NCBI GenBank assembly: GCA_032718475.1
Contig: JAUCBJ010006687.1
Location: 10,635-74,634 of the forward strand
Origin: Nemertoderma westbladi
Lineage: Eukaryota; Animalia; Xenacoelomorpha
Direction of reading: 5' to 3'
Length of the DNA: 64,000 nucleotides
The notes below the pieces were generated by a model. The model saw only the letters and a list, made by a program, of their open reading frames with translations. It was not told the DNA's origin and did not search any database. Both the position numbers and the translations under genes were made by a program. Below, one piece after another: positions 12,226 to 46,996 of the stretch. Each line of letters begins with the position of its first letter. Positions within the stretch are counted from its first letter, which is position 1.

Positions 12226-12249
12226 CCGCTCCCAGAAAATGGGATTTAA

Positions 12250-21400: not shown

Positions 21401-23655
21401 CTAGCAGTATATATGCGTGTAGGCTCCACACCTTGCGCATGAGATACTTCAGACCTAACAGGTTGACACATTGTTACCGAGGGTGGTGGTATACCCCTTT
21501 GAGTATTTACTAATTTATCGCGTTCTAGCGCGATACTTTGCTGCACTTCTTGCAACTCTAGCCTACTTTCCCTTACTGTGCCCTTGAATTGCTGAACAGT
21601 CTCCTGCATCTGCCCGAGCAGGAGATCCATCCCCCGCCGTCTCTCGTCCACCCATTCGACCGCCGAAACGGGAGTCGCCAACGTTGTAGCGGGTGGACGA
21701 GGGACAACGGGCGACAAATCATGAATATTTCGCTCGGGGTCCAGGACCTGAACTGTCTCCTGGGCAGTTCTACTGGGCACAGGTAGCTTAGTGCTATGCA
21801 GAGGGAATTTAGAGGTAGCTTCAGGGAGCACAGGTGTGTCTATCACCGAAGGGGTGATTTCAAGAACAGGCCTAATTATTTCAGGCTCATCTACTATAGT
21901 AGGGAGTCTTTCTATTTGAATTATTTGGTCTGTGGGCTCTGTACTACCTAAGTTGGTGTTATTTAGTTGTCTTCTAACAGCTGGAGGCAAATCAGGCAAT
22001 TTCTGACGATGGAATGTTCTTTTACGTCTGCTTAGACGAGATCTATTTCCTTTGCCTTCAGTATCGGTAGTATCGCCTTCCTCAGATGATGTATACCCCT
22101 GTCTTTTGGGAGTAGATCGACTCATCATCTGCATATTACTAGCTGTTAACTGTTTATTGAAGTTGTCTTGCCTCTCTTGAAGATTTTCCAACTCTAGTTG
22201 GGTTGCCTCTTCAGATGCCCTCCGTTCTGCTTCTGCCACTGCCTCTGCTGTTGCCAGTGCCGCTTTTCTTTCCGCTTCGGCCTCTGCCACTGCCGATGCC
22301 GCTTTCCTTTCCGCTTCGGCCTCTGCCACTGCCACTGCCACTGCCGCTTTTCTTTCCGCTTCTGCCGCTGCCACTGCTGCTGCCACTGCCGCTTTTCTTT
22401 CAGCTTCTGCCGCTGCCACTGCTGCTGCCGCTTTTCTTTCCGCTTCTGCCTCTGCCACTGCTGCTGCCACTGCCGCTGTCTTTCTATCTTCTATACGTTT
22501 TTTCTTTACTTGTTCTTCTTGGTCTCTAGCGATGCGGAGTTGTTCATCGAATTTAGCTTAGTTCGCCGCTAACCTATCCACATCAATTGCATCCAACACA
22601 CGCTGGGCTCCTTCACTATTAGGGCTAAGTCCATCTAGCCTTCTCCTCAACTCTTCATCTCCCAAAAAACGCTGATAGTCTGACAGATAGATGTCAATGG
22701 CATCCCTCTTATGCGGTTTCTCTGCCGTCGCTTCACTTTCCACTTGGGAAAAAGTAGCGTCCGTTGATTCTCCATGGGTTGAGCACTCCTCCAGCTGAGC
22801 TTTCCACTGAGCTGTTCCTTGAACCTGGCGACTCACCCGTTGAAACCAAGTCTTTACGGCAACTTGCAACGACGTGTCTTGTCTTCTTTTAGAAGCCTCT
22901 TCAAAGGCTGATAATATTAGCCTGATTCGCAGAATTCTTTCTCTAACTTGATAAAGCAGTTGTCCCTGCTCTTGAGGTCCTTTAGGTTGTTGAAACAGTT
23001 GTTTTTCTACTCTCTCCATAGAGCTGAAGAATCCCTGTGCGTATCCGGCTGCGGACCTCTTCCACACAGCTGGATCGATGGTTTCCTTGGCTACTCCCAT
23101 CCGGTGTATGTCTTCCCAGGCAGCTTCTGATAAATCGAACGGGAGTCCGGGTCCGGGGAAGTTCCATTGCGACTCGACCATAGATTTCAGTTCTTCCTTT
23201 GTGTATCCCGCATAACTATCTTTAGTTGAGCGCTTACTTCTCGCCCAATCGATCTGGTGTTCTTCCACCGCGATCAATAGCCTAGTGAGTACGGCTGCAG
23301 GAAGGATGAGAAGGGGATCCGAATAAACCGCATCCGTCATCCTTGCTCCGCGCTCGGGTGTCAGTTCTACAGTATCTTCACTACTGGAGCTGTCGGGCCG
23401 CTGAGAAATAAGTTCTTGGCTCGCGGGTTGTTGCTGTTCCGCTGCTTCTTGGTCCCGCTTGACCTGAGCTCGAGTGCCTATGATAGACCTACGATGTTGG
23501 ACCAGCCTAGGTTCTGTTATTACTACTGGAGGGATGACCTTCCTCACAGTGGGAGGTGAACTGAACTTAGGACTAGACGGTTCTACACCTCTGTCTGAGT
23601 CGCAGATAGTTACATCTAATAAACTGTCTGACAGGTTCTGTTTAGTGTCAGACAT
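15458..23655 (-). pseudogene. gag-pol of BEL copy 1, with three lesions
   Basis: Colinear with copy 2. Nonsense TAA at 22558-22560, 8-nt insertion frameshift at ~20740, nonsense TGA at 16202-16204. Contains DUF1759-like KFNGDEMKWLPF, Zn knuckles, LLDSGS protease, YMDD RT, HVFGDAS RNase H, HHCC/DDE integrase. Confidence 0.93.
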
Positions 23656-25982
23656 GTTGGTTTGCACAGTTGAATGCCTACTGCTATATTACAGTTTAAG
23701 CAAGTCTAGTAATTCAGAGTTAACTGCTAGCCTAGTAATTAATTACCGATACTGCTACTCAGTGTAGCGTGATATATATAATATATTAGAATACCGGTAT
23801 GCTTATTGTATATATAAGTATTATTACAGACTAGGTTTTTCACAGAAACCGGTATATAATTTTAGCGCAAATATATATAAATATATAATAGGCCTATCGG
23901 GAATACCGGTATACAGCTTACAGTTTGTAGTATATATAATTCTGGACTAGAATTAATTACAAGTACCGGTATAATTTCAGCCTAAATTTATAGAAATAAA
24001 GATAATAGGCCTATCGTAAATACCGGTATGCAGTTTACACTTATAGTGTATATATATAAGTATAATTACAAACTAGAATTAATTACAGAATACCGGTATG
24101 ATTTCAACCTAAAATTTATAGAAATAAATATAATAAGCCTATTGTAAATACCGGTATGTCAATTATTTTAAATAACTGAATTTCTGAATTTTAAGGGTTA
24201 CTTGGTTACCTTAACTTACTTTATTGCCGTTATTTAAGCAGTAGTCCAACTGATATTGAGACCTAATTGTTGTATGGCAGGCCTACTATTTATAAATCGT
24301 TTGAGTTGATTTATAATATATATATACCCGTTTAATGGGTTTTGTCAATGTTGAAATAAATGTTATTATTTCTGGGGAGTAATCACTACACAAAGCGGTG
24401 CGCTTTCAGTGAAGTGTTACTTATAGGACACTAAAACAAATAATGCTAATTTACCTAAGTTACTTAATACTACAAATTACGTACGATTCGGGTTGAGATT
24501 ACAATCTCTAAATAAACACAAAAATTTACAAAAACACAAATACGAATTTTCAGGGTAATTGTACAAGATGTCTACAAACCAGCCTAACAAAGGGTTAGTA
24601 TCTGGTTATTACAACGGACAGGGTACTACGGTATTTGAAAATAATAAGTAGTAGTAAATACACTGCGTTGTCCAGATAGGAAAATACCACCGCCTGACGA
24701 CCTATAGCCGTATCGCTATAGGTACTACGTTATGTATCACGGAGTGTTCCTACCTAGAAGTTAATAGAGCTAATCGAACGTGCCTATCAACCACTTTACA
24801 ACACAAATATAATGCCTACACTAATTACTTTCGGAAAGCACTGTACACTAAACCCTAAATTAGGTACGAGTACTTGTACAACAAATAATCAGTAGTTAAA
24901 TATACTTGAACAGCTAAAAGAACCACGGCATCTGCTGGAGTGACCGGTGCACAAAATCACCAGTCTTTACCTACGCCAAGCAGCCCGTGTAGTACCGGGG
25001 TTAGTTTAACTATAGCGGTATGTATAACAAACACAATTATTGTAGGAACAAACTTGGGGAATGAATGTTGCGAATAATCGCATAAACTCTGAATAATAAA
25101 TATTACGCTACGCGTACAAACCACTCAAACAAAATGCAGACCAAACACTGACAGACTACTATCAAGCCTAAATAAACTACAGGACATGCAGACTCCGAAA
25201 TAGTTAGGTAGTATGCGTTCTAACCCAGTAGTACGACTTATTCTTTAGATGGGGGTTTACCTTACAGCATTGGCTGCCCCTACTTCCTAACCGTTCTTTA
25301 TCGGACAGAGGCTCTACACACACTGCAATCCGTTCAGACCTAATAACAGCCAGACAACTATCCAGCCTACAAATTATCTAAATAAATATTATACGCTACC
25401 TGTACAGACTACACAAACAAAGTACAGACTAAACGATGGCAGACTACTCTCAAGCCTAAATAAACTACAGGACATGCAGACTCCGAAATGATTAGGTAGT
25501 ATGCGTTCTAACCCAGTAGTACGACTTATTCTTTAGTTGGGGGTTTACCTTACAGCATTGGCTGCCCCTACTTCCTAACCGTTCTTTATCGGACAGGTGA
25601 TCTACACACACTGCAATCCGTTCAGACTTAACAGCAATCAGACAACAGCCCAGCCTACAAATTGTCTGTACTATCTGATCAGGCTTACACGCCTTCTGTT
25701 CAATACTGGCCTACAAATAAATAAAACTGACAGAAATAAGTAAGCTCCAAAAGAAACAAGGGGTGTACAGTCCCTAATCTCTTAAACAGCCTACCGGTAT
25801 ACAATAATCAAATCGAATAATACTAATGTACTTATACGGGAAGTACCGGTTAGGACAGTTAGGCCTACGGACCTACAGAAGTACCGGTTCTGGCAGTTGG
25901 ACCTACTGACCTACAGATGTACCGTTCAGGTTTACCGGTTGACCGGTACTTTCAACTTTATTGCTTACTGCAATAAAGAAGC

Positions 25983-25994
25983 TATATCCGTTAT
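25983..25994 (-). promoter_or_regulatory. Non-tRNA primer-binding site of copy 1 (sense ATAACGGATATA), complementary to LTR segment 26753-26764
   Basis: Directly abuts the 5' LTR end; no TGG; perfect 12-bp inverted match inside the LTR. Confidence 0.7.
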
Positions 25995-27202
25995 TGTTCG
26001 CGCTTTCAGACCTTTGGCAGTTTAACCCGCCAAATTAGGATGTCTTTTAGATAATAAATCACTTTTAGCCTATGACAAGTATTTGATTCACTACACTAGT
26101 CGAAACCAATCTGTGCGCGATCATTCACCCGCTGGATATACCCGGGAGATTGGGTTCGACGGCTTAATCTTATTGCTATGTAAGCCTAATGTATTATTCG
26201 ACTGACAGTATTATATAATCTCTGACAATATTATTCACCTTCGGGAAATATTAACAGTTCCTTTAGGACGTGGTGCTCTATCTATATAAACAGAGTTATG
26301 ACTTAAACTACTCACAAGGATATGGCTTAGTTATAATTCACATATATGGCGCATTCTTTAGGAAATGCTTCGTTATCAGACTCACTCATACACAATGCTG
26401 CACAATACTGCACACTGATCTGCCGATCTTCACTGATTTTAGCCACATATAAAAGGAACACGGACCGACTCATGTAGGGTCTATCAAATAACATTAGATT
26501 CACTTCAAACCACTTTAACATAAGTCACAATCGTTATATGTAACCTTTCTCTCTTACCTTTGGTATATCAAGAATATTGGGTTTTCGGGGTTATTTATCG
26601 TTATTCCAAATATAATAATTCATCAACCATATTATGAAGAACTGACAGTAAATAGCAGTATAACAATATAAAAGTATGCACAGGTTGTTTGATTAGGTAT
26701 GGTATGTTATGTTTAGTTCATCAGTGATCAGACATCAGTTAAGTATGGATTGATAACGGATATATGTCCTTATAATTAAGCCTACTAGTGTAAGGCTAAA
26801 ACAGAAAAGCACAAAAATATTCCAAAGCCGCTCTCTCCTGGCTTAGGACAGAAAGACCAACAACACTGAAAACTGATAAGAATAACCTTATTTACAAAAG
26901 ATTCCACCCACCACAGAGAAAGAGCATACAGATAGGAAAATTCAGTTCAGTAGATCTGTGATAGGTCGAAATCAAAATCAACTCAAATCCTATTGGCAGA
27001 TACAGAAAGCAGGGCTGTGGGGCAACTTTCCCAAGCTGGTTGGACAATCAAACGTAGCCCAGATCCCTTCGCACAGCAAATCAGCCAATCAGCCGGTAGC
27101 TTGCGCTATTCGAGTTATAGATCCCTTTTAGAGTATTCCAGCGCCTTGGGGGGAACTGGTTAGCAAAGCAAACGAATCAGTTATCCCACAAAAGCTTTTA
27201 CA
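25995..27202 (-). repeat. 5' LTR of BEL copy 1
   Basis: 1208-bp direct repeat of 11018-12225; TG...CA ends; followed by the TSD. Confidence 0.97.
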
Positions 27203-27256: not shown

Positions 27257-28597
27257 TAGTCTTTTCAGTGCTTTCGGTTGCGCATATTAATGGGTGCGTG
27301 TGTTGGTGTTCGGGTATCGGGTACATACATAATTGCGTACATACCGATAATGGTGTCTTTCGGGTGTTTGTCAGTAAAGTGTTGTCCTACTGAGTTGTTC
27401 TTCGCTTTGTTTTTATTACGAAGGAGTTGCGGTGTCTAGCTATATGTTCTCTCACTGGTCTTACAGTCTCTCCAATATAATCTTCTTTACAGATATTACA
27501 CTCAACGCGGTGTACTACACGTTGGTTTTTCGATGTGCACATCTTAATACCGTGGTTGCATGTGTAACAATTAGTCGGTGCTTGATGCTGAAGGGCATCT
27601 TAGATTAACAGTGTTGGCAAATTAGTATATTACGGAGTTTTGGTCCGGTGGTGGTCAGGTGGTGGTGGATGCAACCCGCGTGACGTCGGCGAATGGCGAC
27701 TCTCGTATGGCTATGGCTGTCTTAACTTTGCGTGGAGGATGTTTTTGTCCAGATAAGGAAGGGTTTACAAGTGGAAACATGCGCGTGATGTATGTGTATG
27801 CATGCGTGTTTAGTGTTTTGGTTGTCGTAACCTGCTGTATTAACAGGACCTGAGCTTGAGAACTTTCCAACTAATTATTATTTATCACCATACCCTTATG
27901 TTTATTTACTTTAAAATTAAACCATGGAAGTATCAAAGACAATTTATAATTATTCAATAATAAGAAATAATCTAAATAAATCAATTCACAGAAAAACTTT
28001 CAATTGATTTAATGAAGCGGCAGATGTACTCTAAAAAACCACCTCCCGGAACTTCAAACCTCACCGTGATTGGTAGTTGTGGAATCTTAAGACTCATAGA
28101 AAGGAGGTTGGGGAAAATTACAATGGCAGTTGGACTCTTTAAATATGGAGATGAACAGATGCCACGGCAATACATGATACAACAACACGATGGTCTGACC
28201 AATAAATTACGAGAAAGGAATCAATGGAAACCCCAGGCAGGAAGCTAGAGATTTAAAATATCAAAGTGGACTTTGGTTTATATATATAATATAGCGATTA
28301 TTTGAGTTGATATATTTATTACAGGCTGGCACTGTTTATTTACGAAATTTGATTATTATTATTAATTTGATTGAAAATTACGAAACATTAAGATTTTCAA
28401 TAGTAAATTTGCTAAAAATATATTTTCAATAAAACTTGGGCGATGAAGCAGAACTCTTTAAGGTTGCATATTTTTATAAAACCATTTGGTGATAACGTAG
28501 GGCACAATGTTGTTGCAATTCTGGTGTACAAAGAATATGACCAATTAAAATTGTGAGAAAACCTTATCCTTTGTATGTTATTACTTGGTACAGTAGT

Positions 28598-30085
28598 ATG
28601 GCGGATAGAACTGCAGTTGAAATACCAAAGGACAATATAGAGAATGTATCGTCAACTCAAGACGATTACCGCAAAAAGACCACGATATTACAGGATGAGG
28701 TTTATTCTATAGAACAAGCTATAGATCAAATTGGATTTGGTAAATTCCAAGTGAAAGTCTCCCTCATCGCAGGATTGGCCTGGACTGTTGATGCCATGGA
28801 GATGATGATTCTGAGTATTTTGGCCCCGGAGTTGTTGTGCAGATGGCATTTGACAACTGTCGAAGAAGCTTGGATCACTACTGTTGTATTCATTGGGATG
28901 GTTTCGTGTTCATCATTGTGGGGGTATATTTCTGACTATTATGGTCGCCGGGTTGGAATTTTCATAAGTTCACTTGTCACATTTTACTTTGGAATGGTGA
29001 GCGCTTTTGCTCCATACTACGCGTGGATATTGCTGCTACGTGGTCTCGTAGGTGTCGGAATAGGTGGGGCCCCTCAAGCAGTAACACTTTACGTGGAATT
29101 TGTACCCAAAAATACTCGAGCTCGTTGCATCATTTTATTGGAAGTCTTCTGGGCAACAGGGGGATGCATAACAACATTAATCGCTCTACTAGTCATGCCT
29201 ACTCTCGGGTGGCCCTATTTCTTAGCTTTATGCGCACTACCAGTTGGCATATTTTGTTTTATAATTTTCTGGCTTCCTGAAAGCCCCAGATTTGATATTC
29301 TTTCAGGAAGAAGGCAGCGAGCAATAGCTACACTGGAACGCATAGCTAAAGATAACAAAAAGCCGATGCCACTTGGTACATTAGTGTACACCCCGCCTGA
29401 GACGAAACGAGGGAGAATATCAGATTTGTTTTCGGAGGAGTACATGCGAACGTCAGTGTTACTTATATATATTTGGATGTCGTGTACATTTTGCTATTAC
29501 GGGATTATTCTTCTAACTTCAGAACTCATGCTATTAGCAGGAGACAAGTGCATGATAGAGAGTAGTTTTGGAAACCAAAATTCGTGGACATGTCATGCAG
29601 ACTGCAATTTGCTAGACACACGAGATTACATTGACTTATTGTGGACTTCAGTGGCTGAGTTTCCGGGATTACTGTTAACAGTTTTGATAATTGGACCCAT
29701 TGGGCGTCGGTATACCATATCTTCTTTGATTGCCCTGTTCGGAATATTTGTACTGTTTCTATTGATATGTTCTAGTCGGACAGTTACTGTGCTGTTGTTG
29801 TTTTGCGCTCGAGGTGTTATATCTGGGAGCTTCCAAGCTGCATATCTTTACACCCCCGAGGTTTACCCAACAACCGTGCGAGCACTATCGCTTGGAATGT
29901 GTTCCGCTGCCGGGCGAGTGGGGGCGACCATCACTCCTTTTGTCGCCCAAGTTGCTTTGCAAAAGAGTATCTATTTAACCGTCGGAATATATGCTGGAGT
30001 GGCGTTCACGGCTGCTTTAGCTGCTTGTTGTCTTCCCTTTGAAACAAAGGGAAGAGATATGACAGATGTTAGACTAAGAAAGTAA
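28598..30085 (+). CDS. SVOP: SVOP-like MFS transporter, paralogue 2, single coding exon
   Basis: ORF highly similar to 6131-7603 with the same motifs; first in-frame ATG at 28598 (the track start at 28553 is GTG). Confidence 0.9.
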   Translation: MADRTAVEIPKDNIENVSSTQDDYRKKTTILQDEVYSIEQAIDQIGFGKFQVKVSLIAGLAWTVDAMEMMILSILAPELLCRWHLTTVEEAWITTVVFIGMVSCSSLWGYISDYYGRRVGIFISSLVTFYFGMVSAFAPYYAWILLLRGLVGVGIGGAPQAVTLYVEFVPKNTRARCIILLEVFWATGGCITTLIALLVMPTLGWPYFLALCALPVGIFCFIIFWLPESPRFDILSGRRQRAIATLERIAKDNKKPMPLGTLVYTPPETKRGRISDLFSEEYMRTSVLLIYIWMSCTFCYYGIILLTSELMLLAGDKCMIESSFGNQNSWTCHADCNLLDTRDYIDLLWTSVAEFPGLLLTVLIIGPIGRRYTISSLIALFGIFVLFLLICSSRTVTVLLLFCARGVISGSFQAAYLYTPEVYPTTVRALSLGMCSAAGRVGATITPFVAQVALQKSIYLTVGIYAGVAFTAALAACCLPFETKGRDMTDVRLRK

Positions 30086-30579: not shown

Positions 30580-31928
30580 ATGTGTGCATTATACTTGACA
30601 CAATGAACCCGGCGTAGCATTGTTGTGAATGTGCCATCCAGAGATTTGGCGTCCTCAGCAGTTAGAGCCCAGCATGGACTCCCATATAGGAGTAATGGAA
30701 CTACTGCTGCTCTAAATAATCGGACCTTAAGTTTCCGATTAATTCTCGGTGACTTCCAAATCCTGGAAAGCCTATTCAAGGCTGCCCATGCCTTTCCCTT
30801 ACGTATTCGAAGGTCATTACCTGACTTCCGGATCCATGATCCCAGGTAACAGAAGTCGTCCACATGCTCAAGCACACCATCCTTTGAGCTTATGCTCATC
30901 CGACCAGAGACTTGCTGAGGACTTTCAAAGTTAACTGTCAAAATTGTGGTCTTTCTGGGGTTAATAAGAAGACTAGCACTAGAAGCAGCATGTTCTAATG
31001 AGCTGAGGAGACGTTGGGCTCCCTCTAGTGATTCTGAGAGTACTCCTAAGTCATCAGCAAAGTCAGATCAGTTAGGTACTTGGCAGGATTTCCTCGATTT
31101 CTGGAGCCAGTAGGTGGAGTTATCATCACCCCATCATCATTATGATGATCTAAAGACATGCGTAGAACATAGTCAACCACAATTATGAACAAGAATGGTG
31201 CAAGTGTGTCTCCTTGGAGGACGCCCCATAACACTTCAAATGGTTCTGTGTCACCGTCAACGGTAGACACAAATGTTGTCGAACCATCGTATACTGATCT
31301 GATTGCTGCAATAATTTCATCAGGAATCCCATATAATGAAAGTATGCTGAACATACGTGAGCGAGAGACTGAATCAAAGGCCTTGCAGAAGTCAACAAAG
31401 AAAAACAGCCAGATGCCTGTCTTTCTTTTTTGATTAACTCTTAAATTATCCTTCTAAGTGCCAAAATGGGCTCCATGGTCCCACGACCTTTACGGAACCC
31501 ATTCTGATTTCTACGGAGCAGTCTCTCAATGGGATCCCTGATGCGATTTAATATAATTCTATTGTATAGCTTTGCAGCAATCGAGATCAATGAGATTCCC
31601 CGAAAATAACCATAGAGTGTTAGGTTGCCCTTCTTGGGAACTGGCACCAACTTATTTGTTTTCATTTCTTGTGGGACTCTTGTTGTTCGGTACATGTCTA
31701 CTATGATGGGATAGATGAGTTTTAAACATTCAGGTATTTTAAAGACCTCAGGGGGAACACCATCTACTCCACTGGCACAATTGGTCTTAATGCTCTTTGC
31801 AGCAGCCTTCACTTCTGCAAAGGAGATATCGCCAATGGGAATATCTGGGAGTACAGACTCAGACACTTTTACTTCTATAAAGTTATCAGGCAACAATACC
31901 CTGTCATTATTGAGGAGCTTTTCAAAGT
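30580..31928 (-). mobile_element. Truncated, frameshifted RTE-clade LINE RT fragment
   Basis: PVPKKGNL, RGISLISIAAKLY, QNGFRKGR, GVLQGDTLAPFLF, FCYLGS; nearly identical to 50990-52700. Confidence 0.9.
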
Positions 31929-32276
31929 ATCTTTGTGATATGTTTGAACATTAATTGGACATTATTGGATGTGCTTGTCAATAAACTAACTAGGCAATTA
32001 ATATACTGTAGTGTATAGTAGAATAAGAATGGCAGTGATTTTTTATGTCCTTTCTTTAGATTTTTTTAGTCCGTAATTTTTTACGAATTTTTCATAATGA
32101 ATTTTTTGATTGTCAAAAATTTGATTGATCATTATGACTTTTTATGTAGGCCCTATATATGCATTTCATCAAAATCAAAATGTCAGACTGATAATTTCTG
32201 GACTGTCAGACAATTGATTTCACCATGCCCCGGTGCCTGTGTCAAACCAAGGGGTATAACTTTTGCGTAGAGGTTT

Positions 32277-33487
32277 TGTAAAAGCTTTTGCTGAATTGTC
32301 CGGTTATTTTTCCTTATTTTTCCCGTAAAGTACTCTGTAGTTGGTTTACCAGGCATAAAAAGGCCGTGTCCTTGCTGTACTGGTGTTTTAGCGGACATAA
32401 AAGCTATTTCTTCTGTATTTGTACTTTAGAGGACATAATCCGTAATTCCGTGACGTAAAAGCTCGATACTCTTGAAAACAGTGTCGCTACCATGACGACG
32501 GCTAGCAGCTGATATTGCCACGTCGACGTTTCTTTGTTTCTCTGTTCTCTCGTTGTTCAGGTTGACCAATCAGAGCGTTTGTTGTCTCTGTGTTGGAGGT
32601 ATATACAGAAACTCAGTAGTTCAGTGTTATGTTTTTGCCCAGAGCTTAAGAACCGGCTTTGGCACCTCCGTGTTTTCAGTTTTTAGTCTTACACTAGTAG
32701 GTTTAATTATAAGGACATATATCCTTTATCTACCTGGCTTTTAATCGCTGCTAACTGATCATACATACTGACTGCTGAAACATTGCAAACTCATAACAAT
32801 CAGTGTTCAGTTGTTGTTTTATACTGCTATTTACTGTCAGTTCTTCATAATATGGTTGATGAATTATTATATTTGGAATAACGATAAATAACCCCGAAAC
32901 CCAATATTCTTGATATACCGAAGGTAAGAGAGAAGGGTTACAGATAAACGATTGTGACTTATGTTAAAGTGGTTTGAAGTGAATCTAATGTTATTTGATA
33001 GACCCTACATGAGTCAGTCTGTGTTCTTTTTATATGTGACTAAAATCAGTGAAGATTGGCAGATTAGTGTGCAGTATTGTGCAGCATTGTGTATGAGTGA
33101 GTCTGTTAAAGAAGCAATTCCTAAAGAATGCGCCATATATGTGAATTATATTTAAGCCATATCGTTGTGAGTAGTTTAAGTCATAACTCTGTTTATATAG
33201 ATAAAGCGCCACGTCCTAAAGGAACTGTTAATATTCCCGAAAGTGAATAATATTGTCAGAGATTATATAATACTGTCAGTCGAATAATACATTAGGCTTA
33301 CATAGCAATAAAATTAAACCGTCGAACCCAATCTCCCGGGAATATCCAGCGGGTGAATGATCGCGCACAGATTGGTTTCGACTAGTGTAGTGAATCAAAT
33401 ACTTGTCATAGACTAAAAACCGATTTAATATCTAGAAGACATCTTAATTTGGTGGGTTAAACTGCCAAAGGTCTGAAAGCGCGAACA
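32277..33487 (+). repeat. 5' LTR of BEL copy 2
   Basis: Direct repeat of 46997-48207 (3 substitutions noticed by eye). Confidence 0.97.
32560..32630 (+). promoter_or_regulatory. Candidate LTR core promoter
   Basis: CCAAT at ~32566, TATATA at 32600-32605, TCAGT initiator-like motifs at 32613 and 32621; copy 1 has TAAATA...TCAGTTTTCAGTGTT at the equivalent place despite otherwise diverged U3. Confidence 0.4.
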
Positions 33488-33488
33488 T

Positions 33489-33499
33489 TAAAGGATATA
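33489..33499 (+). promoter_or_regulatory. Non-tRNA primer-binding site of copy 2 (TAAAGGATATA), complementary to LTR segment 32718-32728
   Basis: Starts 1 nt after the LTR end; no TGG; perfect 11-bp inverted match inside the LTR. Confidence 0.7.
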
Positions 33500-33860
33500 G
33501 CTTCTTTATTGCAGTAAGCAATAAAGTTGAAAATACCGGTCAACCGGTAAACTTGAACCGGTACTTCTGTAGGTCAGTAGGCCCAACTGCAAGAACCGGT
33601 ACTGCTGTAGGCCCGTAGGTCCAACTGCCAGAACCGGTACTTCTGTAAGTCCGTAGGCCTAACTGTCCTAACCGGTACTTCCCGTATAAGTACATTAGTA
33701 TTATTCGATTTGATTGTTGTATACCGGTAGGTCTTAATACTTAATCAGGGAATGGCCGCCCTGGTTTTTTATTGAGATTTTACTTATTTCTGTCAAGTTT
33801 TATTTGTTTGTAGGCCAGTATTGAACAGAAGACGTGTAAGCCTGATCAGATTGTGCAGAC

Positions 33861-34430
33861 AATTTGTAGGCTGGGCTGTTGTCTGATTGCTGTTAAGTCT
33901 GAACGGATTGCAGTGTGTGTAGATCACCTGTCCGATTAAGTACGGTTAGGAAGTAGGGGCAGCGAATGCTGTAAGGTAAACCCCCAACTAAAGAATAAGT
34001 CGTACTACTGGGTTAGAACGCATACTCCCTAATCATTTCGGAGTCTGCATGTCCTGTAGTTTATTTAGGCTTGAGAGTAGTCTGCCATCGTTTAGTCTGT
34101 ACTTTGTTTGTGTAAGTCTGTACGGGTAGCGTATAATTTTATTTAGATAATTTGTAGGCTGGATAGTTGTCTGGCTGTTATTAGGCCTGAGCGGATTGCA
34201 GCGTGTATAGATCACTTGTCCGATTAAGTACGGTTAGGAAGTAGGGGCAGCGAACGCTGTAAGGTAAACCCCCAACTAAAGAATAAGTCGCACTACTGGG
34301 TTAGAGCGCATACTCCCTAATCATTTCGGAGTCTGCATATACCGTAGTTTGTTTAGGCTTGATAGTAGTCTGTCAGTGTTCGGTCTGCATTTTGTTTGAG
34401 TAGTTTGTACGCGTAGCGTAATATTTATTA
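33861..34430 (+). repeat. ~288-bp tandem duplication in the BEL 5' leader (copy 1 equivalent ~25095-25665)
   Basis: Units start AATTTGTAGGCTGG at 33861 and 34149. Confidence 0.9.
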
Positions 34431-35364
34431 TTCAGAGTTTATGCGATTATCCGCAACATTCATTCCCCAAGTTTGTTCCTACAATAATTGTGTTTGTTAT
34501 ACATACCGCTATAGTTAAATTAACCCCGGTACTACACGGGCTGCTTGGCGTAGGTAAAGACTGGTGATTTTGTGCATCGGTCACTCCAGCAGATGCCGTG
34601 GTTCTTTTAGCTGTTCAAGTATATTTAACTACTGATTATCTGTTGTACAAGTACTCGTACCTAATTTAGGGTTTAGTGTACAGTGCTTTCCGAAAGTAAT
34701 TATTGTAGGCATTATATTTGTGTTGTAAAGTGGTTGATAGGCACGTTCGATTAGCTCTATTAACTTCTAGGTAGGAACACTCCGTGATACATAACGTAGA
34801 ACCTATAGCGATACGGCTATAGGTCGTCAGGCGGTGGTATTTTCCTATCTGGACAGCGCAGTGTATTTACTACTACTTATTATTTTCAAATACCGCAGTA
34901 CCCTGTCCGTTGTAATAACCAGATTTCTAACCCTTTGTTAGGCTGGTTTGTAGACTTCTTGTAAAATTACCCTAAAAATTCGTATTTTGTGTTTTTGTAA
35001 ATTTTTGTGTTTATTTAGAGATTGTAATCTCAACCCGAATCGTACGTAATTTGTAGTATTAAGTAACTTAGGTAAATTAGAATCATTTGTTTTAGTGTCC
35101 TGTACGTAACACTTCACTGAAAGCGTACCACTTTGTGTAGTGATTACCCCAGAAATAATAACATTTATTTCAAACATTGACAAAACCCATTAAAACGGGT
35201 ATATATATATTATAAATCAAATCTAACGATTTATAAATAGTAGGCCTACCATACAACCATTAGGTCTCAATATCAGTTGGACTACTGCTCAAATAACGGT
35301 AATAAAGTAAGTAAAGTAACAAAGTAACCCTAAAATTCAGAAATTCAATTATTTAAAATAATTG

Positions 35365-35655
35365 ATATACCGGTATTTACGATAGGCCTATTATCTTTAT
35401 TTCTATAAATTTAGGCTGAAATTATAACGGTACTTGTAATTAATTCTAGTCCAGAATTATATATACTACAAATTGTAAGCTGTATACCGGTATTCCCGAT
35501 AGGCCTATTATATATTTATATATATTTGTGCTAAAATTATACCGGTATTCTGAGATAAACCTAGTCTGTAATAATACTTATATATACTATAAGCATACCG
35601 GTATTTTAATATATTATATATATCACGCTACACTGAGTAGCAGTATCGGTAATTA
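35365..35655 (+). repeat. ~58-bp-period TACCGGTA minisatellite just upstream of gag (copy 1 ~23790-24160)
   Basis: ACCGGT or a variant recurs at ~35369, 35427, 35486, 35541, 35597. Confidence 0.8.
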
Positions 35656-35739
35656 ATTACTAGGCTAGCAGTTAATACTGAATTACTAGACTTGCTTAGA
35701 CTGTAATATAGCAGTAGGCATTCAACTGTACATACAAAT

Positions 35740-38700
35740 ATGTCTGATACTAAGCAGAACCTGTCAGACAGTCTATTAGATGTAACTATCTGCGACTCAG
35801 ATAGAGGTGTAGAACCCTCTAGTCGTAAGTTCAGTTCACCTCCCACTGTGAGGAAGGTCATCCCTCCAGTAGTAATAACAGAACCTAGGCTAGTCCAACA
35901 TCGTAGGTCTATCATAGGCACCCGAGCTCAGGTCAAGCGGGACCAAGAAGCAGCGGAACAGCAACAACCCGCGAGTCAGGAGCTTGTTACTCAGCGGCCC
36001 AGCAGCTCCAGTAGTGAGGATACTGTAGAGCTGACACCCGAGCGCGGAGCAGAGATGACGGATGCGGTTTATACGGATCCCCTTCTCATCCTTCCTGCAG
36101 CCGTACTCACTAGGTTATTGATCGCGGTGGAAGAACACCAGATCGATTGGGCGAGAAGTCAACGACCAACTAGAGATAGTTATGCTGGATACACAAGGGA
36201 AGAAATGAAGTCCATGATCGAGTCGCAATGGAACTTCCCCGGACCCGGACTCCCGTTTGATTTATCAGAAGCTGCCTGGGAAGACATACACCGGATGGGA
36301 GTAGCCAAGGAAACCATCGATCCAGCTGTGTGGAAGAGGTCCGCAGCCGGATACGCACAGGGATTCTTCAGCTCTATAGAGCGATTAAAAGAACAACTGT
36401 TTCAACAACCTCAAGGACCTCAAGAGCAGGGATTGCTGCTTTATCAAGTTAGAGAAAGAATTCTACGAATCAGGCTAATCTTATCAGCCTTTGAGGAGGC
36501 TTCTAAACGAAGACAAGACACGTCGTTGCAAGTTGCCGTAAAGACTTGGTTTCAACGGGTGAGTCTCCAGGTTCAAGGAACAGCTCAGTGGAAAGCTCAG
36601 CTGGAGGAGCGATCAACCCATGGAGAATCAACAGACGCTACTTTTTCCCAAGTGGAAAGTGAAGCGACGTCAGAGAAGCCGCATAAGAGAGATGCCATTG
36701 ACATCTATCTGTCGGACTATCAACGTTTTTTAGGTGATGACGAATTGAGAAGAAGGTTAGATGGACTTAGCCCTAATAGCGAAGGAACCAAGCTTGTGTT
36801 GGATGCCATCGATGTGGAAATGAGGGCTGCGAATCAGGCTAAATTTGATGAACAACTCCGCCTGACACGAGTCCAAGAAGAACAAGTAAAGAAAAAACGT
36901 ATAGAAGACCGAAAGGCAGCGGCAGTAGCAGCAGCAGTGGCAGCTGCAGAAGCAGAAAGAAAAGCGGCAGCGGCAGAGGCAGCGGCAGAGGCAAAAGCGG
37001 CAGTAGCAGCAGCAGTGGCAGCTGCAGAAGCAGAAAGAAAAGCGGCAGCGGCAGAGGCAGCGGCAGAGGCAAAAGCGACAGTAGCAGCGGCAGTGGCAGC
37101 TGCAGAAGCAGAAAGAAAAGTGGCAGCAGCAGAGGTAGCGGCAGAGGCAAAAGCGGCGGAGGCAGTGGCAGAAGCCGAACGGAGAGCTACTGAAGAAACC
37201 ACTCAATTAGAATTGGAAAACATTCAGGAGAATCAAGACTGCATAAATAAACAGTTAACAGCCAGTAATATGCAGATGATGAATCGATCTACTCCCAAAA
37301 GACAGGGATATACATCATCTGAGGAAGGCGATATCACCGATACTGAAGGCAAAGGAAATAGATCTCGTCTAAGCAGACGTAAAAGAACATTCCACCGTCA
37401 GAAATTGCCTGATTTGCCTCCAGCTGTTAGAAGGCAACTAAATAGCACCAACTTAGGCAGTACAGAACCCACAGACCAAATAATTAAAATAGAAAGACTC
37501 CCTACTATAGTAGATGAGCCTGAAATAATTAGGCCTGTTCTCGAAATCACCCCTTCGGTGATAGACACCCCTGTACTCCCTGAAGTTACCTCTAAATTCC
37601 CTCTGCATAGCACTAAGCTACCTGTGCCCCGTAGAACTGCCCCAGAGACAGTTCAGGTCCTGGGTCCCGAGCGAAATATTCATAATTTGTCGCCCGTTGT
37701 CCATCGTCCGCCCGCTACAACGTTGGCGACTCCCGCTTCGGCGGTCGAATGGGTGGACGAGGGACGGCGGGGGATGGATATCCTGCTCGGACAGATGCAG
37801 GAGACTGTCCAGCAGTTCAAGGGCACAGTAAGGGAAAGTAGGCTAGAGTTGCAAGAAGTGCAGCAAAGTATCGCGCTAGAGCGCGATAAATTAGTAAATA
37901 CTCAAAGAGGTATACCACCACCCTCTGTAACAATGTGTCAACCTGTTAGGTCTGAAGTATCGCATGCGCAAGGTGTGGAGCCTACACGCATATATACTGC
38001 TAGCGAAGTAGAAACTCCTATAGTGAACCCTATTAAGGGTAATTATAGACCTGTTGATAATGACATTCCCTATAGACCTGATCATAATCCGAGAAATTTA
38101 TATACCGATAACTCGATATTAAATAACACGATGGCCCAAGAAAGTTTTACGCGTCAAATGGCTAGAACCGAAGCCCGGCAAGCGGTAAAGGTGGGAGAGA
38201 TCGTCAAGTTCAATGGAGATGAGATGAAATGGTTACCTTTTAATGAATATTATAAAGATAACATACAGAACTCTGTACTATCTAATGGAGAAAAACTTAG
38301 ATACCTCATCGAGTGCTTGGAAGGATCTCCCAAGTTAATGGCGTTAAAGTTTATTGGACATCCAGACGGATTAAGACAAGTTTGGGATACGCTAAACATC
38401 AGGTATGGTAATAGGAATAATATCGCTGGGTACTTGTATGCAAAATTTGTAGCGCCCCGAAAGTTTATTAGTAGCGGAATTATCGAGTTTTCCGATGAGA
38501 TCCAGGAGATCTGCAGATAATTAGATTGGCTAGGTAAGTCTCATGAGTATCAGAACACTATGGTTATTAGAGCAGTGGCTTCTACTTTACCGAAAGGTGG
38601 AGTAGGTACACGCTGGGATAAGAAAGTGTTATATATGATGGAACAACAACGACGAGACCCTACCATGGCTGATCTCATGTCATTCCTAGATGGAGAAGTG

Positions 38701-41700
38701 AAATTACAGCTCCTGAAACTGTCTAGGGAGAAGACACCGGAAAGCAAGGTAAGTGAAAAACCCGTCTCTAGGAGAAAGGTAACACCAGTGTGTTATACAG
38801 ACGACGGTGAAAGCCAGACTTCTCAAGGAGAAGATAGCGGGAAAGACACTGAGAGATCTTATTACGTAAATAAAATTCCTAAAGATCAGGTGAGTAAATT
38901 CAAGTCTCGATCAAATGACAGGAGAGAACAGGTAAGAAAAACTCCTCCTACGTCTCCCAAGAGAATTCCGGTGAGAAAGCCCGAAGAAAGGGCAAGTGTA
39001 CACAATGTGACTCAACATAAGGTAAGTAACATCAAACCAAAATGTGCGCTGTGTGACGGGATCCACCATTTGAATAGGTGTGATGAATTTCTAAAGAAAT
39101 CATTAACGGAGAGACGCGAAGTCATGTGGGATAAGCGGTTATGTTATAATTGCCTCAGACAAGGACACCAACGGCGAACCTGTTTCTCTGACATAAGGTG
39201 TGCAAAGTGTGGTGCGAAACATCATATCTTGTTGCACGCTGAATTCGATCGAAATAGTCCGAATCAGGTAAGTGATTCCGAGCTACATGTCCAATTCAGT
39301 GATGTGAACGACACTGATCAATCTGAGATGGAAGGATTCTACACAGACGAGTTCTCCGACGAAAACGAATCCTGTTACATGATAAATACCGCAGTGTATC
39401 GAGCGCTCACCTATGAAAAGGATACAGACAACGACTTCACTCTAACTACTTCTGAGCGACAACCATCTTGGAAAGAGCCATCTTCCAATGTAGGGATCCG
39501 AGAGTTTCCTGTGGTGCAAGTGAGGGTTCACGGACCTAAGAGGAGTTATGTAGTGAACGCCCTCCTTGACTCCGGTAGTACAGGAACATTCATCGACAAA
39601 GAGCTAGCCGAAGATATATTTGCTGGACAACTCAAGTTCCAAACTAAGCTCAACATGTCTGGCATAATGCAAGTTTGGAAATCTACAATCACAGCGGATT
39701 ATTATGTAGGCGCGTTGTCCACCCCACAAGACGAACTAGGAGAACACAGCATAAGGTCAGTGAAAATGGTGGCTATAAAGAACTTCGCTACTACTCAAGC
39801 AGACCTTTATAATTGGGACGAGGATGAGAGCATCCAACATCTTAACATACCTCGATTCCAGACTGATTATCCTGGAGTGCAAATACTCATCGGCCAAAAC
39901 GCGCATGAGGCGCTGGAGACATTAGAGAAACGGCCTGCTCAACCGCAGCCCCTACAGACCTATGCGGTAAGAACTAGAGTAGGTTGGTACTTTACTGGCC
40001 CTTCCCGTAGAACACTCAGAGAAAGACTACCGCCAGAGAGCGTATGCCAGGTGAGTGAATGGGAAGATGATACCAGTGAGGGAGACAACTCAACTGAGGG
40101 AATTCCATACTCCTCAGATAACGACGACGTTCACCAGCTTTTTGATGAGGAGAATACCATCGATCTCCTTAAGGAAAATGAGGCTTGGCAAAACCAAGTT
40201 AACTTATGTCAACTTCTCTATCCATCTGAACGAGAAGCTTATAACGACGAGTTAAATGACGTCATTGAGCGTTGCAATGCCAAGACTCGAGATGAACATG
40301 CTGTACGATTCTTTACGCAAGAGGCGGTAGAGCCCAATTCCTACGATAAAGCCTTGTCGGTGGAAGAGGAAAGGGCCAAGCAGATCCAAGAGACGACTAC
40401 ACGTTTCCTCAAAGATCAAGGAAGGTACGAAGTCGGTTTACCTTTTCGCAAGAGAGAACCGAAGTTCATCAATAACAGACCTTTGGCGGAAAAAAGAATC
40501 GCGCAACTCCATCGACGCCTTACGGCTAATTCTTCAGCTAAAGCAATGTATCAAACACAGCTGGAAAAATTTATTAATAAGGGATACGCGGAGAGAGTAC
40601 CGGAAGAAACACCTGTGACTGAAAGAACGTATTATTTAACTCACCATTACGTTCCTAAACCCGGTAAACCCAATGAAGTGAGAGTAGTGTTTGATGGCTC
40701 CGCTCTTTACATGGGTCAATCCCTTAACTCTGAATTGTTACCCGGACCCAACTTACTTCAATCTTTGTTGGGGATTCTTTTAAGATTGAGACAATATTCG
40801 ATTGCTTTCGCCTCCGATATAGAAGGCATGTTCTTACAAGTCAAGGTGTTAGATAGGGATCGAGATAGTCTACGATTTCTGTGGTGGCCCGAAGGAGATC
40901 TCAACCAGAAACCGGTGGAGTACTGGATGACCATCCAGGCCTTTGGGATAATCTCAAGCCCTTCCAACGCCTGTTCGGTATTGCGTACTACTGCAGAGGA
41001 CAACCGAGAGGCATTCTCTAAGGAAGTAATCGACAACACCAAGAGAGACATATACATGGACCACAATCTGAAGTCCCTCCCATCAGTTGAGGAAGCCATT
41101 GAGGTCGCTAAGGGAACGGTAGAGTGCTTAAAAAGAGGTGGATTTCGATTAACCAAATTCACCAGCAACTCCCGTGAGTTTCTGGAGTCGATCCCTGCGG
41201 AAGATCGAGGGGCGAAAGATCTCGATTTGATCAAAGATGATCTGCCAGAGACCAAGACACTCGGCTTGAAATGGGACACAGAGCGAGATATTCTGTTTTT
41301 CCAACTAAAACAGCGAGATAATCCAGTTCGAACCAAACGGATTTGCTTAAGTATACTGAGCACTTATTTCGATCCATTGGGATTTATTAGCCCAGTTATA
41401 TTGATTGCTCGTAGTTTGGTACAACAAATGTGGCTTGAAAACCATTCATGGGACGATCCACTTAAGGGGGAATTATTGAAGCAGTGGATGAAATGGGAAG
41501 ATTCGCTGCCAGCTATCGAAGATTTTATAATTTCCCGTTCATATTTTGGTCATGTTCTCCCTACGTATTCCTATCAACTCCATGTGTTTGGAGACGCCAG
41601 CGATATGGGAATCGGTATAGTAGCCTACCTAAGAGTGGAAACTCCGGATGGAATCAAAGTCGCCTTGGTTACTTCTAAGGCATTAATCAACAACAAGTTG

Positions 41701-43938
41701 AAAGTTCCTCGAGCGGAGTTAAAGGCGGCTCTATACGCTACAGCCATCGGCCGGAATGTAACCGAACAGATTGACTATACATTAGAGAAAACTGTCTATT
41801 GGACCGACGCTTTACTCGTGTTAGAGTATATAACCAATGAAGTCTGTCAGTTCAGCGTCTTCGTTACCAACAGGGTAGCCATCATACTTAGTCGCACGAC
41901 GATGGACCAATGGAGACATTGCCCCGGAACGATTAATCCAGCAGACATCGCGTCCCGAGGAGCGACTCCAAAGGAATTGGTAAATACTCCCGAATGGTTA
42001 GGAGGACCCGACTTTCTCTACAGAGAAGAAGAAGAATGGCCTCCCCATCTCACAACAGCAGAGATCAGACAGGCCAAGGGAGCGGAGAAAGTTAAACCCA
42101 AAACTCGAGCGAGTAAATCGAAGTTATTTAAACCTGCGGTTGATCTATCTGTATTATTTACTTCCGGAGAGGATGCTTTGGATCAGAAACCCACCGCCAC
42201 GACTAAAGAAGTCTTGGAAATCCGTGACAAGGATTGGAAATCTGGAATACCAGATATCTCACAAGGACTCTCACCTCTCTTGCAGCGAGCGATACGTCAC
42301 TACAGTTCCTGGAATCGGCTCTGTAAAGCTGTTACCTATTTGAAACGATGTTTTCATCATCGTTACTCCGGGACAAAGACCAATAGTGATGATGCTCCAT
42401 CAACATCTGCACGAGTCCATGTTGTTAAAGATCTTCCTAAATACAAGATATCCGACAGGTTTCTAAAGGAAAAGATCAGTTACCAGGAGCATGATGAAAC
42501 CAACAAACAGATGCTGAGACTTCTACAATGCTATGAGGATTCCGATAAGTATTTCCTGTTGTTAAGAAATCCACAGATGCGCTTAAGGGATCGCTTCTCT
42601 AGTACCATGATAGATGGGTTAATACGTGTTGGAGGTAGGCTGACCAACGCCCCATTATCCTTTGACACTAAGTTTCCCATACTCATTAGAAATCTTGATA
42701 TACAAATCAAGATAATTGTAGATGTTCATAGCAAACTGTACCATGCTGGTAGAGAACGAGTTCTGAGCGAAATTCGAACTCGCTACTATTTTTATAAACC
42801 CCGTAGGGCTCTGAACCAAGTTCTTAGGAACTGCATACCCTGTAGGAAAGCATTCAGTAGGCCTTTAACACAGCGAGAGGCAGAATTACCTAGGGAAAGA
42901 GTAAGCTTCTATGAACCACCCTTTACTAATACCGGTGTGGATTTATTTGGCCCTATTGAAGTATATCGTGCCCGGACTATAGTCAAGAGATGGTGTGTCA
43001 TCTTCGTTTGTATGACTTGTAGAGCTATCCATCTCGATATGGTAAACGATCTATCCACCAACAGCTTCGTGTTGAGTTTACGACGACAGATCGCTCGTTT
43101 CGGAACCAGTAACACGATGAGATCGGATAAGGGAACGAACTTCATTGGCGCCAACAACGAAATTCAAGCTTACGTGAAGGACTGGAACAAAAGACAGGTG
43201 GACGATCAGCTAAAGATAACAGCGTCTAGTTGGACCTTCAACGCCGCCGACGCCCCTTGGTGGGGAGGAAGTTGGGAGAGATTGATTAGGAGCATGAAGA
43301 CTGCGTTCCACTTTATTGTGCCTTGTCGCGCTTATCTCACCGACGAATTATTGCGGACGTTAATGGAGGAAATCGCCGCCTATCTCAACGAAAGACCGCT
43401 TATGCCAGTCTCTTCAAATCCTGATTCCCTGGAAGCGCTAACACCCGCGCACTTTCTACTGAAGAAACCCGTAGCCATGCTCCCACGATCGGAGATCACA
43501 GACGGAGACGAGTACTGCCGTCGAACCTGGCAACTTATGCAGTTGCTATCCCGTCGTTTCGCTGACCATTTCGAGAAACATTACCTGCCCACTCTACAAC
43601 TTCGAACTAAGTGGTTTGCGCAGCAAGAAAACGTCAGCGCTGGAGACATGGTGCTTATTGTGGACCCCGATCTCCCACGTAAGCGATGGCAAACAGGACG
43701 TATCATCGAGACTTATATCTCGAGCGATGGTTTGGTGCGATCAGTAGAGCTCGTCGTCATGCGGCGGAACTTTAAGAAACCAGGGATAGTCTTTGAGACT
43801 CAACAGCTCAATCGCCCAGTGGGTCGTTTATGTTTACTGGAAAGAGACAGAGAGCTCTCCGGAAACTATGGAAGGCAAGAAACTCTTCCCACGACCACTT
43901 CCCTAATCCAACCGACATCTAGGGACTCCCCAACTTAA
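35740..43938 (+). pseudogene. Single-frame gag-pol of BEL copy 2 (~2730 codons) with one internal stop and an RT active-site change
   Basis: ORFs 35740-38520 and 38560-43938 share a frame, split by TAA at 38518 (CAA in copy 1); YMDD is YMDH at 41053-41064; PR LLDSGS, RH HVFGDAS, IN H..H...C..C and D,D,E motifs present. Confidence 0.95.
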
Positions 43939-45586
43939 TATCGTTCGGAGTGGGCGTGTGACTCTATTATTTTATATTATTTTATTATTTTTATATTTAT
44001 GTATGTATTACTATGTAATTTTATTATAATCGTTTTATTTAATTTAGTAGAATATTATTTAGCGATTATTTTGTAGAATAGTGCAATATATTCGTGTTTA
44101 TTACGTACGTAATTACTTATATTATATTTAGTGAGACGGCGAAGAAATAATTATTTTTCTCTTTCCTTACTGTCCGTATTATATTATAAATACGTAACTA
44201 CAGTAAGATGAAATGTCCGTACTTATTAAAGTACAATAAAGCCACTACTATATTTAAGTATTATTGGTAGGCAGAGTATTAGGAATGCAAAGTTCAGATC
44301 CTCGTGTCTCGGCTAAACCAAGCTCTGGGTAGACCTTGGAAACGACTTGCCTCTTCACACTGACATTGCTTCGTGCGATATTGCTCTCATACCGTATATT
44401 AAATAATACATATAGTAGCGTGATGTCCCTTTAACAGTAGCGTATAACGCAAAATAAATCTGTTAAACCCTTTGACCATCTGTAATTCTAGTCGATTAAG
44501 ATATCGCGGCACCCACCGATATACTTGAAAGACAAATTCTAGAATCAGTGGTTAACGTCCCCAGACAAGTTCTGGACTAAATCGGTGCCCATCTCAAATA
44601 TTAATTATTTAATATTTGCAAATCTAATAAATCAAAATCTGTAAAATTCAGATCCTTCCACAATTCTAGTCAATTAAGATATCGTAGCATTTACCGATAT
44701 TCTTAAAAAAGACAATTGTCATAGAGTTAAGGATCTTGTGTCCCTAGACATGTTCTAGAATCAAAATATGTCCATTTAATTATCAAATAATAAAATTTCA
44801 GGGAATAAATTTAAATTCATGCCTTTTAATGAATTTAATAAATTGCCATTTTTACGCAATTTATAAAGTTCCCAAAATTCCATTAATTAATAGATCAAGG
44901 GAGCGGAGATTTATCTTATTATGCATATGAGTGTGCGAAAGTCTCCCAAACATAGTCAATAGCCGATAAAATTCATAAAGTCATGTATAAAACAGAACAT
45001 TGACTATTAAAGAATACTATTAAATAACATCCCAGATCTGTATGCATTGGAATCACCCTAATTCTACCGCTAGCTTTGCATAATGTCACCATAGCAACAA
45101 CCACGCTAGAATTAGAATTGAGTTAAACGAACAATAGAAAGCTTGTCCCATTGAATAGCATAGGGAATAAATAGCGTACTACTAGTATCCAAGGATACAT
45201 AATAATACAGTGACATTCTGGAAGGCATTGACTAACGGACAAATGGCCCGAATGTGCGTAGTTGTGACCAGTTGTGTGGTATTTGTGAGTTTATAGGTGA
45301 ATGTTACTGCTAAGGTGTGTTTACAGTAGCTAGTCGCAATCGTAAAAGTAACCTAACTCTCCAAGGAAAACCTGAAGTACATCTAAGCCTTTGGGACGGA
45401 CAGTTGAGTGACTTGTGCCGGTTGTCGTTGTCGTTGTGCGGCTACGTCGTTGGCGAAAGTACAGCGGCGACGACACATCGGCGCTGAGGATCTCGTACTG
45501 TCCGGGGGTTGATTGGGGTAGGCAGCGACGCCCGCTCGCCTAAATATAAACTCATTATAATATGGATAAACTCATATATAGCAGAT

Positions 45587-46990: not shown

Positions 46991-46996
46991 GAGCGG

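Follow-up and report, generated by a model that had tools for sequence, protein, structure and literature searches.

A single island of about 60 nt in the long terminal repeat (LTR) of a Bel/Pao-type retrotransposon carries complements to five distinct sites, which lie in the distal LTR and at the primer-binding site (PBS). As judged by shuffling and by changes between copies of the element, this pairing is real, goes beyond chance and reflects selection on RNA pairing. The reading that we favour, at somewhat better than even confidence, is that the island would form an RNA scaffold docking the element's own 11-12-nt primer on the PBS, with a protein nuclease cutting just 3' of the primer. Together with six distant relatives, the element suggests that priming without tRNA extends through a broad lineage of marine animals, in a layout outside the Tf1 model: the primer is apparently internal, its helper sequences all lie 5', and the distance to the PBS would be closed by either an intron or a scaffold of four stems.

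The element, its two copies and their setting

The window, by which we mean the whole 64,000-nt stretch of DNA analysed, is animal DNA with one 15.9-kb LTR retrotransposon in two copies. Copy 2, delimited by LTR comparison, occupies 32277-48207 on the forward strand. Its 5' LTR (32277-33487, 1211 nt, TG...CA) is 99.75% identical to its 3' LTR (46997-48207), and a short purine tract stands just before the latter. Copy 1, the source of the covarying letters discussed below, lies on the reverse strand (11018-27202) with a 5' LTR at 27202-25995, a 3' LTR at 12225-11018 and a 5-bp target duplication, which was seen in this copy only. Since the LTR pair within each copy is 99.7% identical, both insertions are young. 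Between the copies, identity is about 95% across most of the internal region and falls over a single block that begins near 45300 and takes in U3 and the linker following the island.

Several features of the setting were recorded. In comparison with copy 1, the U3 (32277-32660) and the 3' internal end (45300-46996) are a mosaic of subfamilies, and one family contig changes from copy-2-type to copy-1-type U3 at 32523. The flanks of copy 2 (32272-32276 and 48208-48212) do not match as a target duplication despite the 99.75% identity of its LTRs; this copy may stem from recombination between two insertions or from a join made in assembly. On either side of it lie LINE fragments in inverted orientation, 95% identical (30721-31928 and 50989-52198). 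Two MFS transporter genes, long single open reading frames (ORFs) of 87.5% mutual identity, flank copy 1 (6110-7603 and 28541-30085), and a transglutaminase/KY-like gene forms a single ORF at 60831-63008.

The gag-pol of copy 2 (35707-43938, forward strand) includes PF03564, a protease motif, reverse transcriptase (RT), a PF05380 region with RNase H motifs, PF17921 and PF18701. It is disrupted by an in-frame stop (38518-38520) and a non-canonical RT catalytic motif, and the coding region is broken in both copies; the RNase H motifs are intact in copy 1 and copy 2. The four Pfam domains, in a motif order of protease, RT, RNase H and integrase, are ones that we take to be typical of Bel/Pao elements. 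The best protein matches are 38-44% identical and carry PF05380; the closest proteins, at about 40% identity, belong to echinoderms, cnidarians, molluscs, a nemertean and fish. On the basis of these domains and nearest proteins the element is of Bel/Pao type. Direct TG...CA LTRs, a purine tract and a short target duplication (copy 1), structural features of Bel/Pao elements, were also found. The assignment is one by proteins only, and the predicted priming departs from that described for the group. In a tree that included no named reference elements of the Bel/Pao clades (Suzu, Sinbad/Sailor, Tas), the element sits on a long, unplaced branch.

Outside the conserved domains, the 2.2-kb leader ahead of gag holds tandem repeats of 38, 288 and 117 nt (33555-33679, 33857-34436 and 35366-35605). 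An Ala/Glu-rich low-complexity repeat at 36900-37200, in a long N-terminal part of Gag, differs in length between the copies. The 3-kb region from integrase to the 3' LTR (43939-46996) contains a small ORF without Pfam match (45488-45892 on the forward strand; 13489-12749 on the reverse strand), which could be a remnant of an extra gene.

Contigs of public sequencing runs show a family of high copy number and diversity. Of the contig sets, X1 and X2 represent one sample, and the best-matching set may be the window's own source.

Pairing of the LTR island

Nearly all of 32669-32729 is paired (all coordinates of the island and its partners are on the forward strand of copy 2). The first-pass annotation of this DNA had proposed three long-range stems, and these are present where it had placed them. 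P1 joins 32679-32689 to 33410-33420 with 11/11 Watson-Crick pairs, P2 joins 32690-32698 to 33381-33389 (9/9) and P3 joins 32700-32708 to 33312-33320 (9/9). The distal arms of P3, P2 and P1 thus span 33312-33420, including a side hairpin (33321-33382) and a small hairpin (33390-33409). The side hairpin, likewise proposed earlier, pairs 13/14 between 33321-33334 and 33369-33382. Within the three-way junction that had been described, P2 and the hairpin both claim 33381-33382. P2 is invariant between the copies, as had been claimed, and so has no covariation support in the window; 6/9 of its bases are palindromic.

Two further stems were absent from the earlier description. A two-sequence fold of both copies yielded P0, a G-U-rich helix between 32669-32677 and 33475-33483, the latter arm lying 4 nt before the PBS. 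In addition, 32709-32715 can pair with 33503-33509 just past the PBS, and this 7-bp extension prolongs the primer helix beyond an internal loop; its 5' arm shares positions with a TATA-like motif and with a local hairpin that is weak. The loop closed by P0 contains a U5 hairpin (33448-33469), and a short hairpin upstream of the island (32639-32662) recurs in copy 1 with a different loop and 6/7 pairs. The pseudoknot-like topology suggested by the first reading holds, since the PBS helix crosses P0-P3.

To estimate chance, the island was held fixed and the downstream 800 nt were shuffled 5000 times. Copy 2 has four perfect helices of at least 9 bp against a shuffle mean of 0.31, and four were reached in 3/5000 shuffles; its helices of at least 8 bp cover 43/55 island bases, a coverage reached in 0/5000. 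The corresponding values for copy 1 are three helices (13/5000) and 41/55 bases (0/5000). When 55-nt windows were moved along the LTR, those over the island ranked highest. In nested folding of copy 1, pair probabilities are only 0.01 for P3 and 0.56 for P2. P3 of copy 1 is present in the two-sequence fold, though not favoured in the single-sequence ensemble. P0 has pair probabilities of 0.99 and 0.89 in the sense strand against 0.00 and 0.01 in the antisense strand, a bias that points to plus-sense RNA.

Another 8 nt complementary to the P1 5' arm were noticed at 33038-33045, where 33039 changes in step with 32687 between the copies; the adjoining 33031-33037 matches 32715-32721 over 7 nt. 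Pairing at 33031-33045 could provide an early conformer hiding the primer. In the full fold this alternative at 33038-33045 has a pair probability of 0, and its chance probability is about 3-4%, reckoned after the fact.

Changes between the copies and across the family

Three compensated substitutions, counting one in the PBS, had been reported, and all three were found: 32687/33412 in P1, 32702/33318 in P3 and 32725/33492 in the primer-PBS helix. P3 carries, in addition, one G-U-consistent change. In P1 the two-sided change is real, but the outer two pairs are lost in copy 1, so that the conservation of this stem is less complete than first stated. P0 differs by three one-sided changes, and 9/9 pairs are kept through G-U. 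That both exact partner changes, in P1 and P3, arose by chance has a probability of about 0.001, by arithmetic on one pair of sequences; A>G changes between the copies occur at 7/239 A positions in 32826-33530. In retroelements, the new PBS receives a copy of the primer during plus-strand synthesis. The two-sided PBS change, which such copying can produce, therefore shows that this stretch is the primer and does not show selection on the stem.

Only two full copies are linked across both arms, and contig variants are unlinked between arms. Family contigs were compared over 33295-33535, with shares given as summed contig depth and not as copy number. Among the 25 variant rows found there, 14 fall in stems. 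Half of these (33369, 33381, 33412, 33419, 33453, 33454 and 33488) keep the pair with the copy-2 partner, including the two in the U5 hairpin (33453 and 33454), and one (33376) falls on a standing mismatch. For the remaining six, pairing requires a change in the partner, and for three of them such a change was observed, though unlinked: 33492 (in copy 1), 33420 (in loose ends before 32680) and 33372 (in a loose end). For 33380, 33385 and 33409 it was not seen among the family contigs. No variant row, at a share of 3% or more for the P0 3' arm, occurs in that arm or in 33493-33532; the P3 distal arm lies at the edge of the compared stretch, where a blank carries no meaning. The side-hairpin loop bases 33341 and 33360 vary at high share.

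These patterns bear on the idea that the island is a core promoter and a patch of template-switch homology, its inverted matches being functionless relics of an old inverted duplication. The distal arms are indeed ordered as a reverse complement of the island would be, a TATA-like motif lies within the island and mosaic breakpoints flank it. However, the matched two-sided and G-U-consistent changes need ongoing selection on pairing, P0 forms on the sense strand only, and the PBS would be left without any primer. We consider this explanation highly improbable. Island conservation could nevertheless be in part a matter of promoter function, the TATA-like motif being located at 32708-32714.

The primer and the primer-binding site

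The predicted self-primer (32718-32729) is complementary to the PBS (33488-33499), over 11 nt for copy 2 and over 12 nt for copy 1, and its 3' end is predicted to lie at 32728-32729. The PBS helix of the first-pass annotation, 32718-32728 with 33489-33499, is present with 11/11 pairs. The duplex of primer and extension amounts to -16.9 and -18.8 kcal/mol, against -3.4 and -2.0 for the competing local hairpin. No TGG occurs in the 43 nt after the LTR, that is, there is no tRNA-type PBS, and no tRNA genes were found in the 64-kb window. Two main letter types of the PBS exist in the family, with 33488 and 33492 each varying in about 26-43% of summed contig depth (X1-X3), and these match two primer types in the copies and in loose ends. 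A spliced, longer primer was considered for this element and rejected, as the contiguous match scored best in the splice-junction test.

These observations weigh against the view that a host RNA primes, the PBS match being a by-product of helices with a role in packaging, in dimerisation, in strand transfer or in the control of translation. LTR elements generally have long-range 5' structures, and the palindromic hexamer in P2 could serve dimerisation; tRNA priming is, moreover, what the ICTV, the international committee for virus taxonomy, describes for Bel/Pao (PMC8742986). Yet the PBS has no TGG, its letters vary with those of the LTR primer across copies and families, as a fixed host RNA would not, and the complement stops exactly at the LTR boundary. 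Such a role with a host-RNA primer appears improbable to us.

The primer lies 759 nt from the LTR end and PBS, and all conserved pairing is 5' of its 3' end. Directly after it begins a hypervariable linker (32730-32825, about 95 nt), which is unalignable between the copies and of which further types occur in family contigs, whose joints leave at 32712-32731 and return at 32804-32819. As to its origin in host or element, BLAST within the window gave no match beyond the LTRs. The downstream linker shows no significant pairing with the LTR end (101/300 and 299/300 shuffles) or with the stretch after the PBS (171/300 and 80/300).

Upstream of the island, an octamer at 32621-32628, which we take to be an Initiator-like motif, is kept in both copies within the unalignable U3, with a TATA-like sequence 23-27 nt upstream. 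It is a candidate transcription start. No conserved AATAAA was found in the LTR of this element. Just past the PBS, a 9-bp hairpin (33502-33526) without any family variant row hides an AATAAA (33520-33525) together with a pyrimidine tract whose last letters are CAG (33514). The hairpin is in competition with the primer extension helix, and polyadenylation or splicing may be switched by it. A strong splice-donor-like site at 32924, kept in both copies, lies in the looped-out region, and the linker upstream of it has many branch-point-like motifs ahead of a CAG near 32840. The element may have an LTR intron or a spliced mRNA.

Self-complementary PBSs in distant relatives

Among the genome contigs scanned, 15 Bel/Pao loci (L107-L121) turned up inside bacterial genome bins; the contigs are most likely host-animal DNA. 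Nine of the 15 were left out because no LTR end was readable (no LTR pair, short contigs or overlapping contig ends). The six readable loci (L107, L110 and L113-L116) come from three records and fall into two separately supported clades, L114 and L116 being sister families. The LTR end of L113 was set by eye and L115 was read from its 3' LTR. The single match of the metagenome scan, L106, was discarded as a chance match in an unrelated AT-rich coding contig. In viral contigs, protein scans revealed no relatives and a DNA pattern scan gave 105 chance 14-mer matches, none extending along the LTR.

None of the six readable LTRs is followed by a TGG PBS, and in five the PBS has a perfect 11-nt complement in its own LTR (0-3/1000 shuffles each). 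In L110 the complement is contiguous (0/1000). In L113, L114, L115 and L116 it is perfect only across a splice junction (1, 3, 2 and 3/1000, respectively), the introns being of the GTRAG...YAG form and 338-1022 nt long. L107 reaches 10/11 across a junction, with only 8 perfect (34/1000). Matched changes at the exon-exon junction distinguish L114 from L116. The spliced primers end 44-149 nt from the LTR end, against 759 nt in the present element. A TATA motif about 215-240 nt upstream of the primer in L113, L114 and L116 indicates that their primers are internal, too.

A P0-like helix, pairing sequence upstream of the primer with the LTR end, is clear in L114 (4/300 shuffles), L116 (8/300) and copy 2 (8/300) and marginal in L110 (16/300). 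In the same 300-shuffle test it is not significant in L107, L113, L115 and copy 1. Pairing 3' of the primer is significant only in L110 (2/300), which counts against a strict rule that helpers mirror those of Tf1. From these comparisons, the upstream helper layout is recurrent and not universal; P1-P3 look specific to the family of the present element.

The relatives also lend weight to a different origin of the primer. The same helices might be made with a primer from another molecule or end, supplied either in trans by a short transcript of the LTR or by the island of the 3' LTR, which would pair with the 5' U5 and the PBS (end-to-end cyclisation); the strand would then be cut, or trimmed back to where the duplex ends. 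We hold this to be possible, though on the unlikely side. One contiguous 60-nt strand makes all five helices, which would form just as well between molecules; no conserved sequence lies 3' of the primer; and a start right after the primer would be expected from the TATA-like motif at 32708. In addition, the primer of four relatives (L113-L116) needs splicing while the LTR keeps its intron, and there an AATAAA comes 0-31 nt behind the primer. All of this would be simply explained by a short LTR RNA that is spliced. Against this, no AATAAA lies near the primer of the present element, the exchanged block runs through the linker, suggesting an RNA 3' end beyond the equivalent of 32826, the Initiator-like octamer is conserved upstream of the island with no shared start motif after it, and folding in cis would be kinetically favoured.

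A more specific version is that a discrete RNA of about 60-110 nt from any LTR, solo LTRs included, would act in trans as a substitute for tRNA, wrapping U5 and PBS by five helices in a tRNA-like manner and ending at the PBS duplex. Such an RNA would be ready-made here and spliced in the relatives. We think this unlikely; if true, LTR priming would have a third mode, in addition to host tRNA and to self-priming of the Tf1 type from the 5' end.

A proposed scaffold for self-priming in cis

According to the scaffold reading, which remains the one we prefer, transcription would start upstream of the island, near 32623. This position is suggested by the octamer at 32621-32628 and the hairpin at 32639-32662, both kept in an otherwise unalignable U3, and by the position of the TATA motif in relatives. 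The island copy in the 5' LTR would act in cis. P0-P3 would tie this 5' strand to U5, bridging the unusually long 759 nt between primer and PBS, and would hold the primer's 3' end up to the terminal CA. Cutting at 32728-32730 would then provide the 3'-OH for minus-strand synthesis. R would reach past about 32826, and the minus strand would be transferred within R downstream of the linker. Such a transfer fits the single diverged block from about 45300 to the linker, which is as expected if it derives from the 3' end of an RNA, and the joints near 32820. The earlier proposal that the fold acts as a scaffold, looping out about 600 nt to bring an LTR-encoded primer to the PBS, is strengthened by P0 and by the relatives.

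The nuclease would most likely be the element's own RNase H, the best candidate because its motifs are intact in both copies and because RNase H does the same job in Tf1. There, the primer is known to arise through cleavage by RNase H, according to the accessible text of PMC7175516. In the literature as available in part, cleavage of RNA:RNA by RNase H has been demonstrated for Tf1 only, where duplexes flank the cut on its 3' side, which is not the case here.

The first-pass annotation had also raised the possibility that the fold itself is the catalyst, i.e. that the three-way junction and pseudoknot form a ribozyme cutting itself after the primer. The junction is compact, conserved letters adjoin the predicted cut, and LTR-borne hammerheads are known in retrozymes from the accessible portions of that literature. 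This part of the proposal was not borne out, and the chance that it is right seems slight. In neither copy did Rfam give a ribozyme match at E values up to 10, only unrelated matches below threshold, and both strands of both copies proved to have no hammerhead core. The copy-1 linker has a heptamer resembling that of a hammerhead, which was dismissed, as it is missing in copy 2 and has no partner core. No bases are conserved 3' of the cut, where the copies are unalignable, and the side-hairpin loop bases 33341 and 33360 are variable. Relatives carry the primer without the junction or elaborations of the size of P1-P3, and the RNase H motifs are intact in both copies. Small ribozymes, in the accessible text of PMC8782182, leave a 2',3'-cyclic phosphate and not the 3'-OH of a primer, so that their product could not prime without repair.

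If the scaffold reading is true, the element would offer a defined 900-nt RNA for asking how a 3'-OH primer end arises without flanking 3' structure. Elements of this kind would probably escape control by tRNA fragments, and LTR finders that require a tRNA PBS would under-call them.

Comparison with known systems

With the Belpaoviridae (Semotivirus) the element shares a gag-pol with protease, RT, RNase H and integrase and TG...CA LTRs, here of 1.2 kb. It differs in its self-complementary PBS and its length of 15.9 kb: the ICTV gives for this family an 18-nt PBS for tRNA-Arg or tRNA-Gly and a genome of 4.2-10 kb, and calls Bel/Pao replication poorly understood (PMC8742986). In the openly accessible literature searched, we found no report of Bel/Pao self-priming; a term look-up in the accessible text of PMC554778, PMC3118150, PMC8556966, PMC8220671 and PMC3601003 gave nothing on Bel/Pao priming.

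Retrozymes resemble the element in carrying a structured RNA inside the LTR and differ by their hammerheads, of which no core is found here. They are non-autonomous and tRNA-primed. Closer in function are the plant TAR elements (Houba, Osr-1) of the copia superfamily and Tcn1, for which self-priming has been predicted (PMC6317226). As far as the accessible text of that paper goes, they also have an LTR segment complementary to the PBS and stand outside or at the edge of the Tf1/sushi group. They belong, however, to another superfamily and kingdom, and no upstream multi-helix scaffold is described for them in that text (PMC6317226).

The nearest parallel is with Tf1, Tf2 and Tj1 of the Tf1/sushi group. 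In the accessible portions of the sources, these lack a tRNA PBS and possess an 11-nt LTR complement to a PBS adjoining the terminal CA, as does the element described here, and Tf1 likewise has extra duplexes beside the PBS (PMC7175516, bioRxiv 10.1101/2022.12.06.519325). Tf1/sushi elements are Ty3/gypsy chromoviruses, whereas the present element has Bel/Pao proteins and no chromodomain match. It would work like Tf1 but is no member of the Tf1/sushi group. In Tf1, as the same portions describe it, the RNA begins with the primer, its first 11 nt, and two helper duplexes use downstream sequence. Here, by contrast, the helpers P0-P3 and the extension are all upstream of a primer that probably lies internally and is separated from the LTR end by 759 nt, so that the predicted layout is a mirror image of the Tf1 'pretzel'.
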